Shown: positions 1,872-59,873 of the stretch, one piece after another
How the letters are laid out: every line of letters begins with the position of its first letter
Position numbering within the stretch: position 1 is the stretch's first letter
Position numbers and translations under genes: made by a program
The notes under the pieces: model-generated
Database searches by the model: none
What the model saw: only the letters and a program-made list of their open reading frames with translations
Told to the model about the DNA's origin: nothing
DNA from: a virus
Taxonomy: Duplodnaviria; Caudoviricetes
Length of the DNA: 59,873 bases
Reading direction: 5' to 3' (one strand)
Virus record (IMG/VR): IMGVR_UViG_3300012943_000036
Span: 1-59,873 of that record

Positions 1872-2479
1872 GCATTCCAATCGGCCTAGAGCTGAAGAAC
1901 GGAAACTGGATCTGCAGCATCGCTCATCCAGAGATGTCGCAGCCTGATCCATTCCAGACGACGTGGTGCGAACACATCAAGTCGATCATAGACAACGGAG
2001 ATGACGCTGAGATGTACCATCTCGGCCTGAAGTTGTCGGTACCGATCTTCCCGTCCAACGACATCTGGGTGCTCGTCATCATCGACTCTGAACCCGTCGT
2101 TGCACGGTCGGCCCTAATGACGATGGAGTACACACCCGATATCGGCTCGACTAGGAAGATCCCGCTAGGACTCTGGAACCCCGGCGAGGGTGCCATGTCA
2201 ATGCGGACCTGTGTCGTGGACTACATCAAGTCTAGATTGGCGCCTGACGAGAACCTCACGTCAGGTCCATTCAAGACTCGATGCCCGAACAACTCGCACC
2301 CTTTGAGCGCGTCTCGCATCATGGCCGATTACCAGGATGATCCAGGCTGGAAGTGGCAGTGTCTCTGGAACATGGTAATGGAAGGCGCATGCTCGCCCTG
2401 CTTAGGAGACGCCTTCGGCGGGGCCGACGACAACTTCGGCATCGACGATTCTGTCATCACGAAGCCGAGGTGGAGCTGA
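1868..2479 (+). CDS. Hypothetical protein, possible SWIM-like zinc finger (C...WCEH)
   Basis: GTGA overlap with upstream gene; Cys/His motifs. Confidence 0.65.
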   Translation: MSIPIGLELKNGNWICSIAHPEMSQPDPFQTTWCEHIKSIIDNGDDAEMYHLGLKLSVPIFPSNDIWVLVIIDSEPVVARSALMTMEYTPDIGSTRKIPLGLWNPGEGAMSMRTCVVDYIKSRLAPDENLTSGPFKTRCPNNSHPLSASRIMADYQDDPGWKWQCLWNMVMEGACSPCLGDAFGGADDNFGIDDSVITKPRWS

Positions 2480-3018
2480 TGCCTGAGGCTTACAAGCCTG
2501 GCCAGCGTCAAAGGAAGTATGGTCAGAACCATCAGATCAGTGAAGATCGTTACGCCTGGGTCGTGACCGACGCAGGCAAGTTCCTCATCTTAGTTGGGTC
2601 GGAAGGTAAGTCCGGGAGTGACGTAGTTCTGTTCGCTCCTCGACCAGGGAAGATTCTCGACTTCGCAATCAACCTCACCAACCTGACTGAACCCGAGCTG
2701 AGTGCTCTGGAAGAACTATTCAAGACGGCCTTCGAGTGGGCCCGACCCGTTGTAGTGCAACGAGACAAGGAAGCTGAACATGCTTGGAACGCTGGTGACG
2801 ACTCTTACACCCGCAGCTATCGAAGCCTTCCAACAGTGGTGTACCGGAAGAGGCCGGGCCCAGAACACGGTCAGGGCCTACGGGAGCGACTTGAGGGCCT
2901 TCCTGACGTCAGCGGAGGGTCAGGTGACGATGGAGGAGTTCGAGGAACTGGCGCAGAGCTGGTTGAACCTGACTCGGAACGTGGTGAGTCCGGCGACGAC
3001 AGCCCGACGTCTGACTAG
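2479..3018 (+). CDS. Hypothetical protein whose 3' end overlaps the recombinase gene
   Basis: TGATG coupling at 2477-2481; ORF stays open to 3018. Confidence 0.6.
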   Translation: MPEAYKPGQRQRKYGQNHQISEDRYAWVVTDAGKFLILVGSEGKSGSDVVLFAPRPGKILDFAINLTNLTEPELSALEELFKTAFEWARPVVVQRDKEAEHAWNAGDDSYTRSYRSLPTVVYRKRPGPEHGQGLRERLEGLPDVSGGSGDDGGVRGTGAELVEPDSERGESGDDSPTSD

Positions 3019-3607
3019 CCTCAAGAGCTTCGCCAAGTGGGCGAAGTGGGGCTCAGTCCTCGAGGAGTACATCGCCCCGAAGCCTGGCAAGACGGTGCCG
3101 CACCCGATCCCGGAAGGCGCGGACGGACTGCATCGCATGATCGAACAGTGCAAGAACTACCAGCAAGAGGCGCTCGTCGCCTTGGGCGGATTCGTCGGCT
3201 TGCGTGTGGGGGAGTCACTGTCCTTCACGACGCACATGCTCGACCTGGAGTCCATGCTGGCGACCATCCGAGGCAAGGGCGACAAGACTCGTGTAGTCCC
3301 AGTGTCCAGTCAAGCCTGGACGCTGATCGCCCCAGCTTACGCGATGGCGATGTCGAACGAGACGGGACACTTAATCACCTACAAGGATCGGTTCGCCCGT
3401 CAGATCATCACTAACCTCGGCGTCAAGGCCAAGCTCAAGCGTCATGTCAAGAGCCACGACCTACGCGCCACCTTCGCTACAGCAGCCTACGACAAGACCG
3501 GAGACATCAGGGTCGTCCAGGAGCTGCTTGGGCACAACTCGTCATCTACAACTGAGATCTACACCGGCGTCCGTCTTGAGACGCTGCGAGAGGCAGTGGA
3601 CTTCTGA
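2780..3607 (+). CDS. XerC/XerD-like tyrosine recombinase
   Basis: NTVRAY N-domain; catalytic set GLRVGE (R), GKGDKTR (K), HDLR (HxxR), LLGH (H), TTEIYT (Y); 275 aa with no arm-binding domain. Confidence 0.93.
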   Translation: MLGTLVTTLTPAAIEAFQQWCTGRGRAQNTVRAYGSDLRAFLTSAEGQVTMEEFEELAQSWLNLTRNVVSPATTARRLTSLKSFAKWAKWGSVLEEYIAPKPGKTVPHPIPEGADGLHRMIEQCKNYQQEALVALGGFVGLRVGESLSFTTHMLDLESMLATIRGKGDKTRVVPVSSQAWTLIAPAYAMAMSNETGHLITYKDRFARQIITNLGVKAKLKRHVKSHDLRATFATAAYDKTGDIRVVQELLGHNSSSTTEIYTGVRLETLREAVDF

Positions 3608-56749: not shown

Positions 56750-56993
56750 CGTCCATAATCTGGTGGGTGTAGCACTTCCCGCTCTTGGAGTTGTGCAGAT
56801 CACAGTCGACCCACGGGACATGTACGCCTGAGAACGCGCCACGAGCTGGCACATAGAGGCGCATGAGCACCTGCTCCATATCCTCGGAGTTGGCGTAGCC
56901 CTCGCCAGGCTCGGCAACCTTGTTGCCGTTCTCGGCTACGACACCCCAGCGGTACTCGTGGTTATTGTCGGTGTACGTGTGAAGCGTATACAT
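56688..56993 (-). CDS. DUF1508/YegP-like protein
   Basis: YRW..VAENG..VA..EGY. Confidence 0.75.
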   Translation of the reverse strand: MYTLHTYTDNNHEYRWGVVAENGNKVAEPGEGYANSEDMEQVLMRLYVPARGAFSGVHVPWVDCDLHNSKSGKCYTHQIMDARTLAQSLRGDELAPSPHDP

Positions 56994-57787
56994 CAGTCTG
57001 CGAGCTCTCGGACCGAGTAGACACCGTGCAGGATGAAGTGGTCTGTGAACAGCTTATGCTTGCGGTCGTCCCAAACCTTGTACTCGAGTCCCTTGACGCG
57101 GTGGTCAGGGTCGAACGAACTGATGATGTCGAGCACCGTGCCACGGCTGGTGTTGATGCCGTGAGTTTTCGGGTGCTTGTTCAGCTCGTCGGCTAGGGTG
57201 GTGAGCGGCTTGCCCTGGAAGACGTCGATCTTGTCGTCGTGCTCGTTGGTGTCGGCGTTGTAGAAGACCAGCTTCTTGCCCGCACCGTGCTTGTGAGCCC
57301 ACTTGGCAACACCCTTGACCATCGGGTCGTTATCAGTCTTCGACGCCTGGATCGACCTTCCGGTGAGCCAGTGACCCGCTCCCACGGTGATCAGACCGAG
57401 GTTTGAGTCCTTGGAGACACCGCTCATCCAGGTCGTACCGCGCGGAGAATGCGCGCCCTGAGATGGCGAAAGACCGTGAGTGCCCTGAATGTACGGGCCG
57501 TCGTAGCCGTGCTCGAAGCCTCTGAGCATGTCTCCATTCATGGCGACCCAATCGCCGTACTGATGGAAGAAACCATGGAAGCCGTGCCTCTTGGCGCTCA
57601 ACATGAGCAGATCGCGCAGGTCGTGGTTGTCGGCACTGGCGCCCGACTCGGTGCCGGTGACGATCCAGGCGCCGGTGTCCACGGCGATGTCGAACACAGC
57701 CTCTGCGTCGTGCTTGTGATGGTCCTTGTTGTCTGAGAATTGCATCGAGTTGTGCTGGATGACTAGCTCTACAGTCTTGGCTGGCAT
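56993..57787 (-). CDS. Endonuclease/exonuclease/phosphatase (EEP) family protein
   Basis: HN, TGTE, ADTN, LDII, TDH catalytic pattern. Confidence 0.7.
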   Translation of the reverse strand: MPAKTVELVIQHNSMQFSDNKDHHKHDAEAVFDIAVDTGAWIVTGTESGASADNHDLRDLLMLSAKRHGFHGFFHQYGDWVAMNGDMLRGFEHGYDGPYIQGTHGLSPSQGAHSPRGTTWMSGVSKDSNLGLITVGAGHWLTGRSIQASKTDNDPMVKGVAKWAHKHGAGKKLVFYNADTNEHDDKIDVFQGKPLTTLADELNKHPKTHGINTSRGTVLDIISSFDPDHRVKGLEYKVWDDRKHKLFTDHFILHGVYSVRELAD

Positions 57788-58030
57788 CGTGGAGGTCTTT
57801 TCTTGAGAGAGTGGGCCGAGTTCTCAGGGTACGCTCTGCACCCCGATCCTGTCCAGTACCGCACTATATCGGCGCTCAGGGCGAGTCTAGAACAAGATTA
57901 CCCCAGTCAAGCACCAGCCGATATCGGCGCAGTATTGTCTGAGAAAGCACGTAGATTCCCACCAGAAGCGTGTGCAAACTGCTCTGTCAAGCGGTTATTG
58001 TTGCACAAACCAAAGATATTCCAGTCTTTT

Positions 58031-58628
58031 CGTAGACAAAACTGTCTACGAAATTCTGATCCCTAGACATATCCCATACTTTGGCCGCGATGGCGTCACC
58101 AGGCGCCGCGCAGACTGTGATCTTGAGGGAAAAGCCGGTTCGATGCCACCATACCAACCGCGCCACCCTAGCCACGCCAGTCACAGGGGTAACATCTTGT
58201 CCCAAAGTTTTGTATTAACCCAGATCTGAAAAAACGGGCAAGACCTGTCTACGAAATTCCGACATGTACCCTTTTCGTAGACGCGTGTCTACGAAAAGGT
58301 CACGTAATTGTCTACGTAATTCGACACGCGATGTGACCTGCATGTTCAACCGATTGGTTGTAGATGCGCTAGGCGGGGGCGGGCAATTACGTAGACACCC
58401 TGTACCCCCTAACACACAAAGACACCAGTCCTCATTGGTACAAACTGCAAGTCTAGACTCACGTCTGTCCGGCCATTGTCTAGGCTCGTCTTTGGTATAA
58501 CAAGATGCTCTCCGTAGGGGGGGCCTAGGGTGTCTACGAAACCCCTAGATCCACCCCTAAACCCCCTCTGACCTGCAAGGAAATACGTAGACAATTACGT
58601 AGACATTACGTAGACAATATCGTAGACA
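58031..58628. repeat. Twelve CGTAGAC/GTCTACG repeats (iteron-like)
   Basis: Seven forward and five reverse copies; four in tandem at 58586, 58598, 58609, 58621. Confidence 0.85.
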
Positions 58629-58824
58629 TATCACTCTCATTCTGTACACGAAATTCTGATGATCTAGTCCTATGGATGCAGTCACATCTTTGGTGTGGGA
58701 TGACCTTGGTAAAACTTTATGCGCACGCGATGGCCTCTAAGGCGAGCACGCACCACCCCCGTCGACTTTTTCTAGGGGGGGTGGGGTAGGGCATGCCGAA
58801 AGACGTGTAACAGACTAGACATAC

Positions 58825-58852
58825 TACGCCGATAATCGACATTATCGGTAGA
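58825..58852. other. Symmetric dif-like recombination site
   Basis: TACGCCGATAA-TCGACA-TTATCGGTAGA; 11-6-11 layout with inner ATAA/TTAT. Confidence 0.6.
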
Positions 58853-58888
58853 CATACTAGAAAGACGTGACATAGGTGCGCACCCCTA

Positions 58889-59298
58889 TGTCGACTTGTT
58901 TTATCGTCTTTCGGAATGCGTTTATCGGAATGCGTTTATTAGTAGGCGCGACCGATATCGAAAGAATGCGTTATCGGAATACACACAACTAGCGTTATGA
59001 AAGCCGTTATCAGAACACATTACCGATATGCGCCATAACACAATACAGAATGCAACGGATAGGGTTACGACTAACCGCATTCTGATTGCACCATATCCAT
59101 TGTCGACTTGTTTTATCGACTTATTCGATAACCCGTTTGTCAATCCCATGTCCACATATCGGACACTGGTCTAGACCAGTCCACATATCGGACACTAGAC
59201 ATTGACCTATTGTCGACTGTTTCACAAGACTAACGCGGATCACCCGATGCACGGTTTGTCAACCACATATAGATTCTCACGAAACTGGTCTAGACCAG
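58889..59298. repeat. Cluster of short direct repeats and palindromes
   Basis: TGTCGACTTGTTTTATCG x2 (58889, 59101), CGGAATGCGTTTAT tandem x2, GTCCACATATCGGACACT x2, CTGGTCTAGACCAG x2. Confidence 0.8.
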
Positions 59299-59397
59299 CC
59301 CCGATTCCGACCTATAGGCACCGACTTTTGGGTACGATGTCCGTAGGGCATCGCGCCCACCGGGCCACCGGCCCGGCCACTAGATAGGATCCGACTC

Positions 59398-59873
59398 ATG
59401 ATCGACTACACCGCAATCGACACCACCGCAACAACCGCCGCCTACCGTGCGGCCGACGCGTCCGAAAAGGCACGCATGCGGGCCGCCGCATCGGACGCCA
59501 TCACAACCGCCGTGTCGTCGGGTGACATCGCCGCCGCGCAATCGGCGGTTGCGCACCGCGACGCGATGACCGTTGACCGAAAGTCGACCACCGAGGTCGA
59601 CTATGCCGCACGCATCGCCGACCATGCCGCAACGTTGTACGCCGCCTATGCCGCGATTCTGTCGGGCGCCTACGTGTTGCCCGACGGTGTGTCCGTCGAC
59701 GTCGACACGATCGACTTTGCGGCCGGTTCGCCCGATTCCGCGGCCGTGACGCGGTTGTCGGCCGTGTCCGGCCGGAAAGTCGGACGCGGGTGCGTGTCCG
59801 ACTACATCGCGTCGGTGGTGTCCGATGACCCGATGACCATTGCGGGCATGCGCGCCGCATGGGTCGCGTCGGA
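59398..59873 (+). CDS. Ala/Asp-rich hypothetical protein, truncated by window end (not in ORF track)
   Basis: ATG 59398 with AGGA upstream; open to the end: MIDYTAIDTTATTAAYRAAD. Confidence 0.75.
   Translation, partial: MIDYTAIDTTATTAAYRAADASEKARMRAAASDAITTAVSSGDIAAAQSAVAHRDAMTVDRKSTTEVDYAARIADHAATLYAAYAAILSGAYVLPDGVSVDVDTIDFAAGSPDSAAVTRLSAVSGRKVGRGCVSDYIASVVSDDPMTIAGMRAAWVAS

Follow-up and report, generated by a model that had tools for sequence, protein, structure and literature searches.

The locus described here raises the question of what a dif-like palindrome does in the genome of a tailed phage that also encodes a small tyrosine recombinase of its own. The DNA analysed (the window in what follows) is a linear IMG/VR virus record, IMGVR_UViG_3300012943_000036, of 59,873 bp, a metagenomic fragment about 76% complete, and the palindrome lies at 58825-58852. 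We favour, with modest confidence, the view that this site is the target of the phage's own stand-alone Xer-type recombinase, which would circularise the genome and reduce it to monomers in the manner of Cre/loxP. A one-protein, Cre/lox-like pairing had already been proposed from the letters alone (the sequence-only reading). The pairing is sustained here by the co-occurrence of site and recombinase among relatives and by the location of the site in terminal repeats, whereas the plasmid-like prophage envisaged with it has gained one weak hint, a circular contig of 80.5 kb.

The palindrome, the recombinase and their co-occurrence

The 28-bp core site, TACGCCGATAA-TCGACA-TTATCGGTAGA, has the 11-6-11 layout of Xer/dif-type sites, in which two inverted arms of about 11 bp enclose a centre of 6-8 bp. 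The left arm occupies 58825-58835 and the right arm 58842-58852; the 6-bp central region between them, TCGACA (58836-58841), is the presumed crossover region and differs among relatives. Within the site, the 7-6-7 core CCGATAA-TCGACA-TTATCGG (58829-58848), which is kept in relatives, is a perfect 7+7 inverted repeat, and the right arm is an inverted copy of the left one, not an arm of the XerD type. Over the full 11 bp, 8 of 11 positions are symmetric (8-11 of 11 in relatives), so the sequence-only reading was fair in calling the right arm a near mirror of the left; its account of the layout, with ATAA and TTAT beside the centre, also holds. The window has these inner bases, and of the 15 phage sites in the tabulation 14 retain them, the exception being Reynauld (AATA/TATC).

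The palindrome as such is not special by chance: perfect inverted repeats of the 7-6-7 form number 12 in the window, of which three fall in 57790-59400, and the other two in this non-coding region are pairs of a different iteron, TTTTCGTAGAC. The specific sequence is special: CCGATAA-N6-TTATCGG is unique in the window even when up to two mismatches are allowed (0.03 expected), and it is lifted above chance because it is conserved in relatives.

The presumed enzyme for this site is encoded on the plus strand at 2780..3607 and was characterised by comparison with Pfam, PHROGs, NCBIfam and the PDB. Pfam recognises in its 275 aa only SAM_1 (a SAM-like core-binding domain) and Phage_integrase (the catalytic domain), which bears out the earlier description of a XerC/D-like enzyme that lacks an arm-binding domain. 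The NCBIfam scores are all below the cut-offs of the curated families (XerA, 136.1 with a cut-off of 220; XerC, 133.4 with 335; XerD, 117.7 with 330). The closest PDB structures are those of archaeal XerA (4a8e and 5hxy), to which the residues R, K, H-x-x-R, H and Y all align; the matches at E <=1e-10 comprise XerA, a phage Gp33 and XerD, and no Cre chain is among them. The protein is thus predicted to be a stand-alone Xer-type recombinase, closest to archaeal XerA and with complete catalytic residues. An upstream open reading frame (ORF) at 2479-3018 (phrog_6792, match to residue 138 of 179) overlaps the start of the recombinase by about 240 nt in another frame; the annotated 'integrase' of the phages ReqiDocB7 and Perlina is cut to about 160 aa, apparently avoiding the same overlap, and tblastn matches the full 270 aa.

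Protein searches retrieved relatives among Rhodococcus phages (ReqiDocB7, Perlina, Mbo2, Trogglehumper and Reynauld) and among Gordonia phages of cluster DF (GMA3, GordTnk2, Gmala1 and Jumbo, with Camerico placed there by similarity) and cluster CX (Orchid). Their identity to the window proteins is 32-43% for the recombinase and 26-32% for the helicase. Eleven recombinase-carrying relatives were chosen by protein similarity and not by the site, ten from the recombinase ranking and one through a portal profile. We observed the canonical site, with at most two mismatches, at the syntenic place in eight of these 11, and a variant 6-spaced palindrome in two others, Trogglehumper and Reynauld. The exact CCGATAA-N6-TTATCGG occurs in ReqiDocB7, Perlina, GMA3, GordTnk2, Jumbo and Camerico. 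The conserved place is downstream of the primase-helicase gene; in ReqiDocB7, for example, GTGGCCGATAA-CCGCGA-TTATCGGTCAC lies inside a 2.5-kb unannotated gap downstream of the helicase. The arms are retained and the spacer is different in every phage. Two well-supported clades make up the recombinase tree, each with examples of CCGATAA arms; the phages with variant or missing sites (Trogglehumper, Reynauld, Mbo2 and Orchid) all fall in one of them.

None of the seven syntenic relatives without a recombinase (Monty, Diabla, Linetti, Woes, Demosthenes, GMA7 and TIN3) has the site, and these phages share the terminase, primase and helicase. Site and recombinase are associated in this co-occurrence check, which had been proposed with the sequence-only reading (one-sided Fisher p = 0.004, with relatedness ignored). 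A second Fisher test, on the presence of any palindrome (10 of 11 versus 0 of 7), was discarded as invalid, only Monty and Linetti having been scanned among the recombinase-less phages; these two carry GC-rich 6-spaced hairpins outside the terminal repeat. The site itself served to find five IMG/VR relatives (G001-G005), which for this reason cannot count toward the co-occurrence and were left out of it. The three of these records that are at least 72% complete all carry the recombinase, and the two without it are fragments of 56% and 32%. In the closest relative, G001 (locus L141), the helicase is 70% identical and a homologue of the ORF at 59398 is present.

Additional near-matches with one or two mismatches in GMA3, Jumbo, Orchid, Camerico and GordTnk2 were treated as chance, because a control with the pattern written backwards gave 0-2 matches per genome. 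Some of them (GMA3 20445, GordTnk2 20545 and 9665, Jumbo 14617) share CCGATTAAC at similar positions and are probably conserved coding sequence.

The pattern CCGATAA-N6-TTATCGG was also found in at least 120 viral and at least 120 bacterial contigs. We examined 235 unrelated loci, namely 115 of the 120 viral ones listed, after leaving out five relatives, and the 120 bacterial ones listed. All five recombinase-like matches in them lie within 900 bp of the palindrome (viral, 3 of 3; bacterial, 2 of 2), which suggests a wider recombinase subfamily with a predicted specificity for CCGATAA arms. These Xer-like genes are 145-900 bp from the palindrome in L041, L104 and L114 (viral) and in L374 and L338 (bacterial). 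Separately, unrelated proviral IMG/VR records of 5-12 kb (L054, L071, L095, L129, L135, L140 and about 15 others) show GATGCCGATAA-(CCCCAT/ATGGGG/ATAGGG)-TTATCGGCATC, either at one end or as two copies some 7-9 kb apart, with spacers that are sometimes inverted. These records may be small elements bounded by Xer-type sites.

Terminal repeats and a possible circularisation reaction

In all five recombinase-carrying phages that have direct terminal repeats, the palindrome is inside the repeat, and each virion DNA consequently carries two direct copies of it. According to Table 1 of PMC5559632, the repeat is 370 bp in Jumbo, whose site copies are at 194-213 and 78126-78145, and 249 bp in Orchid, in which a two-mismatch variant, GCGATAA-CCGACG-TTATCGA, occupies 170-189 and 80571-80590. 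Comparison of the ends of Camerico defined a 316-bp repeat, with copies at 163-182 and 79304-79323. The copies are in direct orientation in these three phages, and in all of them the helicase is gene 1, beside the left genome end. Trogglehumper and Reynauld do not match the canonical pattern, and the best 6-spaced palindrome of each is again inside the repeat: CGCATAA-N6-TTATGCG at 254-273 and 83516-83535 in Trogglehumper (330-bp repeat), and CGGCGGATA-CAGCGG-TATTCGCCG at position 232 of the 362-bp repeat of Reynauld. Even the generic ATAA-N6-TTAT occurs in the 83.6 kb of Trogglehumper only as the two repeat copies. The recombinase-less phages Monty and Linetti also have terminal repeats, of 191 bp, and such a palindrome is absent from them.

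As a control, each repeat was shuffled 2000 times, and we counted the shuffled repeats whose best 9-6-9 palindrome equalled or exceeded the observed one. The counts were 1 for Jumbo, 62 for Orchid, 66 for Camerico, 99 for Trogglehumper and 184 for Reynauld, and 1636 and 387 for the recombinase-less Monty and Linetti. In G003, a relative that is 93% complete, the site is 215 bp from the right end; the two ends share no 20-mers, and no terminal repeat is visible.

We propose that the reaction would proceed as follows. The virion genome would be linear and terminally repetitious, with one direct copy of the site at each end, and a comparable repeat may surround the site in the window phage. Two site copies present four inverted CCGATAA arms, each of which would be bound by one of four enzyme monomers, and strand exchange would take place across the 6-bp central region, with no need for accessory arm sites or for host XerD or FtsK. 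Recombination between the end copies would yield a monomer circle that retains one repeat, together with a linear by-product of the length of the repeat, and replicative dimers or multimers would be resolved to monomers in the same way. In circularly permuted relatives it would act on whatever redundancy or multimers hold two sites. Cre acts similarly on such substrates in P1. A broader statement, which we offer tentatively, is that an apparently lytic lineage of actinobacterial siphophages circularises by means of a stand-alone XerA-like recombinase acting on dif-like sites in terminal repeats, and not through cohesive ends or homologous recombination. This lineage would include phages of the ReqiDocB7, GMA3/Jumbo (DF), Orchid (CX), Trogglehumper and Reynauld types as well as the metagenomic clade of the window.

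Several observations weigh against this proposal, the case for which is wholly comparative. Mbo2 carries the recombinase, and neither a canonical nor a generic ATAA-N6-TTAT site was found in it; a candidate there, CCCGTACCA-CGACCC-TGGTACGGC, was rejected because it is at chance level by estimate. The palindrome of Reynauld is weak, as indicated by its shuffle count, and has no ATAA/TTAT. Phages with the recombinase and phages without it form lineages of their own, with differences in many further genes, and the co-occurrence therefore amounts to few independent events. GMA3, GordTnk2 and Gmala1 are listed in PMC5559632 as circularly permuted; such relatives hold one site per genome unit, and their cyclisation would depend on the headful redundancy happening to include it. 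The pattern of two copies per virion holds for relatives, and for the window, a fragment whose physical ends are unseen, it can be expected only by analogy. By synteny with ReqiDocB7, the recombinase gene is about 20 kb from the site. Finally, the arm core equals the conserved XerC arm of the host although identity among the phage enzymes has fallen to 32-45%, which could mean that the arms are read by a host protein and not by the phage enzyme.

Relation to host dif and competing explanations

The sequence-only reading had compared the site with an actinobacterial dif whose left arm and GCGACA spacer resemble those of the window, and the dif sequence that it gave turned out to be essentially right. 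The dif of Frankia alni, quoted by Kono et al. 2011 (PMC3025954) as CACGCCGATAA-TGCACA-TTATGTCAAGT, differs from the window site by one base in the XerC-side arm (10 of 11 identical) and by two in the spacer. The actinobacterial dif pattern GCCGATAA-N6-TTATGTCAAG was found in at least 120 genomes, nearly all of them Actinomycetota, once per locus. Among the 120 genomes listed, the spacers are mostly NNNACA, with GCGACA in 13 and TCGACA in 4, and the exact left arm of the window is present in 2.

The features that define a canonical dif are otherwise lacking. In every phage site the right arm is a mirror image of the left one, without any resemblance to the XerD arm (in the window, TTATCGGTAGA versus TTATGTCAAG), so distinct XerC and XerD arms are not seen. 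The site is also not a single copy at a chromosome terminus, as it lies in a phage genome with phage DNA on both sides; the closest relative has these flanks as well, and the site is therefore no junction between prophage and host. The dif spacer of Gordonia is GATACA in three of three genomes and that of Rhodococcus TGCACA or TCAACA, and in neither orientation are these spacers present in the sites of the phages of these hosts. In the clade formed by the window and G001-G004, however, the helicase side of five of five sites shows CGCCGATAA together with a spacer beginning in T, and the right arms are more variable, a polarity that resembles that of dif.

We also looked for integrated relatives. 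A portal-profile scan of one genome per species (185,579 species) gave a single relative, which is a separate circular contig and is not integrated. This contig (C34 of G006; L283, L287 and L288) belongs to a Streptomyces isolate assembly and is a complete relative of 80,560 bp that carries the site. Its identity to the window is 61% for TerL, 46% for the portal and 38% for the recombinase, and a 95-bp overlap of its ends indicates that it is circular or terminally repeated. When the phage enzyme was compared with the G006 genome at E <=0.001, the sole match was the phage contig itself; the enzyme is thus not a recent copy of a host XerC. A pattern for hybrid sites gave 120 bacterial loci listed, which are scattered over all phyla in a chance-like manner and have no phage hallmark genes. 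These integration scans were pattern-based and restricted to the matches listed, and in this sense they do not prove absence. The ORFs scanned in the 60 kb available, which leave about a quarter of the genome uncovered, yielded no repressor, no ParA/ParB and no further lysogeny gene.

The possibility that the site is used against the host chromosome, either as an attP for host dif with the phage enzyme replacing a host Xer, or as a site read by host XerC, draws on the near identity of the left arm to that of Frankia alni, on the occurrence of TCGACA among actinobacterial dif spacers, on the dif-like polarity of the window clade and on the strong conservation of the arm core. Integrative mobile elements exploiting Xer (IMEX), such as CTX-phi, VGJ-phi and TLC-phi, are mobile or viral DNAs with a dif-like site. 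They use host XerCD, are not known to have a recombinase of their own and are found integrated at dif, whereas the window phage has its own enzyme at 2780-3607 and no XerD arm, and no integrated copy was found among the matches listed. The mismatched spacers of the Gordonia and Rhodococcus phages, the results of the portal and hybrid-site scans, the conserved phage flanks, the lack of a repressor in the 60 kb seen, and the description of the cultured relatives as lytic in PMC13313380 all speak against such a use, which we regard as improbable; the integration at host dif suggested earlier is accordingly disfavoured, and the search for prophages at dif proposed with it gave no integrated relative among the matches listed. 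About as improbable, in our view, is a temperate, plasmid-like prophage in which the main task of the system would be to resolve episomal dimers, as Cre does for the P1 plasmid. The Streptomyces contig, with its overlapping ends and its site, fits this explanation, and the unseen 24% or so of the genome could hold partition or immunity genes. The same contig could, however, be an episome, a carrier state or contamination, the window ORFs scanned include no partition or lysogeny genes, and the cultured relatives are judged in PMC13313380 to be lytic and without a repressor.

A different phage protein might instead bind the palindrome, as a packaging or terminal-repeat-processing signal, an operator or an origin element, with the recombinase acting elsewhere. 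This explanation, which we consider unlikely but less so than the two above, would account for the position in the middle of the terminal repeat and for the adjoining iteron arrays and AT-rich tract, which are typical of origins. Moreover, conserved half-sites with a free spacer suit any dimeric DNA-binding protein, and the two further 7-6-7 palindromes nearby are iteron pairs, so that a spacing of 6 need not mean a recombinase site. It is countered by the absence of the palindrome from recombinase-less relatives with terminal repeats of their own and a shared terminase, primase and helicase, by its presence in circularly permuted relatives without fixed ends, by the anatomy and arm sequence proper to Xer sites, and by the recombinase-like genes that adjoin the same palindrome in five unrelated loci. 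That the palindrome is a functionless product of chance seems hardly credible. The abundance of perfect 7-6-7 repeats in the window and the occurrence of the 14-base pattern in so many unrelated contigs would allow it, but exact conservation at a syntenic place in distant relatives, duplication in terminal repeats and absence from recombinase-less kin already contradict it.

Genomic surroundings, known systems and significance

The site lies in a non-coding, repeat-dense region of lower GC content at 57788..59397, defined by GC, repeats and synteny. This stretch of about 1.6 kb is bounded by a minus-strand gene (56993-57787) and the ORF starting at 59398, and the GC fraction is 0.489 for 58001-59000 versus 0.51-0.65 elsewhere in the window. 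At the syntenic place relatives have their own non-coding or terminal-repeat region, where an AT-rich (TA)n tract is also present. Because of this synteny, the iteron families described below and the AT-rich tract in relatives, it is likely to be a replication-origin or genome-end region. A DNA similarity search with 58300-59400 against 50,697 phage records gave no matches, and neither the 264-aa neighbour nor the recombinase found anything in single-protein locus searches of IMG/VR. The one public run that was found, available as contigs, covers the window with a single contig, which ends at 59850 and gives no information on termini, joints or variants; this run probably represents the source sample and so is not independent. 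Elsewhere in the window, the minus strand encodes a siphophage set (terminase, Mu-like portal, ClpP-type protease, major head protein, a tape measure of 1,753 aa and tail proteins), and the plus strand encodes an AEP primase, a primase-helicase, an SNF2 helicase, a sliding clamp, an exonuclease, RusA, a methylase and WhiB.

The site marks the border between two iteron families, both of which recur around it in G001. GTAGACA occurs 24 times in the window (6.0 expected), 12 of them in 58032-58854, to the left of the site. An array of CGTAGACA iterons extends over 58027-58630, with repeated copies of this iteron in the closest relative too; palindromic iteron pairs are found at 58027-58056 (TTTTCGTAGAC-AAAACT-GTCTACGAAA) and at 58272-58300. 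To the right, at about 58906-59087, a second family of the CGGAAT type, T(T/A)TCGGAAT(G/A)C, has direct and inverted copies, and ATTCCGA/TCGGAAT repeats occupy the equivalent place in G001. The half-site TTATCGG looks over-represented (12 versus 3.4 expected) because two of the CGGAAT-type copies contain it.

Two pairs of exact direct repeats flank the site on the plus strand. The 11-bp TAGACATACTA is present at 58816..58826 and at 58849..58859, where it overlaps the outer four bases of the right arm, and GAAAGACGTG at 58798..58807 and 58860..58869. The sequence-only reading had included the TAGACATACTA repeat with the site; the exact copies do exist, but they carry the iteron core TAGACA and are better read as two further iteron-like copies, probably outside the recombination site. 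That they represent a target duplication was rejected, since they are not kept in the closest relative and carry this core. Other repeats nearby include an imperfect inverted repeat (58791-58823 / 58887-58919, 73%) that brackets the site off-centre and a 22-bp direct repeat, TGTCGACTTGTTTTATCG(T/A)CTT, at 58889-58910 and 59101-59122 (95% identical, 212 bp apart). In addition, GTCCACATATCGGACACT occurs twice (59150 and 59179), as does the perfect palindrome CTGGTCTAGACCAG (59166 and 59284); GTCCACA in the repeats of 59150-59298 resembles what we take to be the core of the actinobacterial DnaA box.

Among known systems, Cre/loxP of P1 is similar in having a single phage tyrosine recombinase without an arm-binding domain and a site with symmetric inverted arms and a short asymmetric spacer. 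The P1 site can lie in the terminal redundancy, so that the linear DNA is cyclised by recombination once injected, and dimers are resolved through the site as well. The name Cre itself stands for causes or cyclization recombination (PMC8050033). In contrast, the site described here has arms of 7-11 bp and a 6-bp spacer of the Xer/dif and not the loxP type, and the enzyme shows no homology to Cre among the PDB matches at E <=1e-10; despite the proposed Cre/loxP-like mode of working, both enzyme and site appear from their sequences to belong to the Xer/dif lineage. P1 is moreover a temperate plasmid prophage with headful packaging, whereas the phages considered here appear lytic, in several of them short exact terminal repeats invariably enclose the site, and gene and site are about 20 kb apart.

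The single-Xer systems of cellular chromosomes (archaeal XerA/dif, XerH/difH and XerS/difSL) likewise combine one Xer-type enzyme with a 6-spaced site of two similar arms, and XerA acts alone and is not known to depend on FtsK. They resolve chromosome dimers at the terminus, in contrast to the origin or terminal-repeat region of a phage, and the phage enzyme scores below every curated family cut-off. XerC/XerD-dif of Actinomycetota shares the 11-6-11 layout and a left arm and spacer nearly identical to those of the phage, but the phage right arm is a mirrored XerC-type arm and not TTATGTCAAG, and one phage enzyme would stand in for two host enzymes. Clostridium phage c-st, for which Table 1 of PMC8026635 gives direct terminal repeats of 404 bp and one Xer-family tyrosine recombinase, is alike in both respects; it differs in being a proven circular plasmid prophage with TubZ/TubR partition. 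Our literature search found no description of the site; the supplements of PMC5559632 (figshare) and PMC13313380 (S1 Table), which were outside its scope, may mention attP or termini.

A comparative paper of 2026 (PMC13313380) considers the Gordonia and Rhodococcus phages probably lytic and their tyrosine recombinases probably not integrases, and leaves the role of these enzymes open. Many sequenced, lytic-looking phages of these genera carry such a small recombinase, and the circularisation of the genome by the phage's own enzyme supplies a candidate role for it; with a likely target site inside the terminal repeats, the question of this role becomes directly testable at the bench. If the proposal is true, it would be a second natural case of recombinase-driven genome cyclisation after Cre/loxP of P1, built in this instance from Xer/dif parts. 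These phages would then offer a compact, host-factor-independent family of recombinases and sites with naturally diverged spacers and arms, and orthogonal small recombinase/site pairs for high-GC Gram-positive bacteria, and the puzzling 'integrases' of lytic phages would gain a function.

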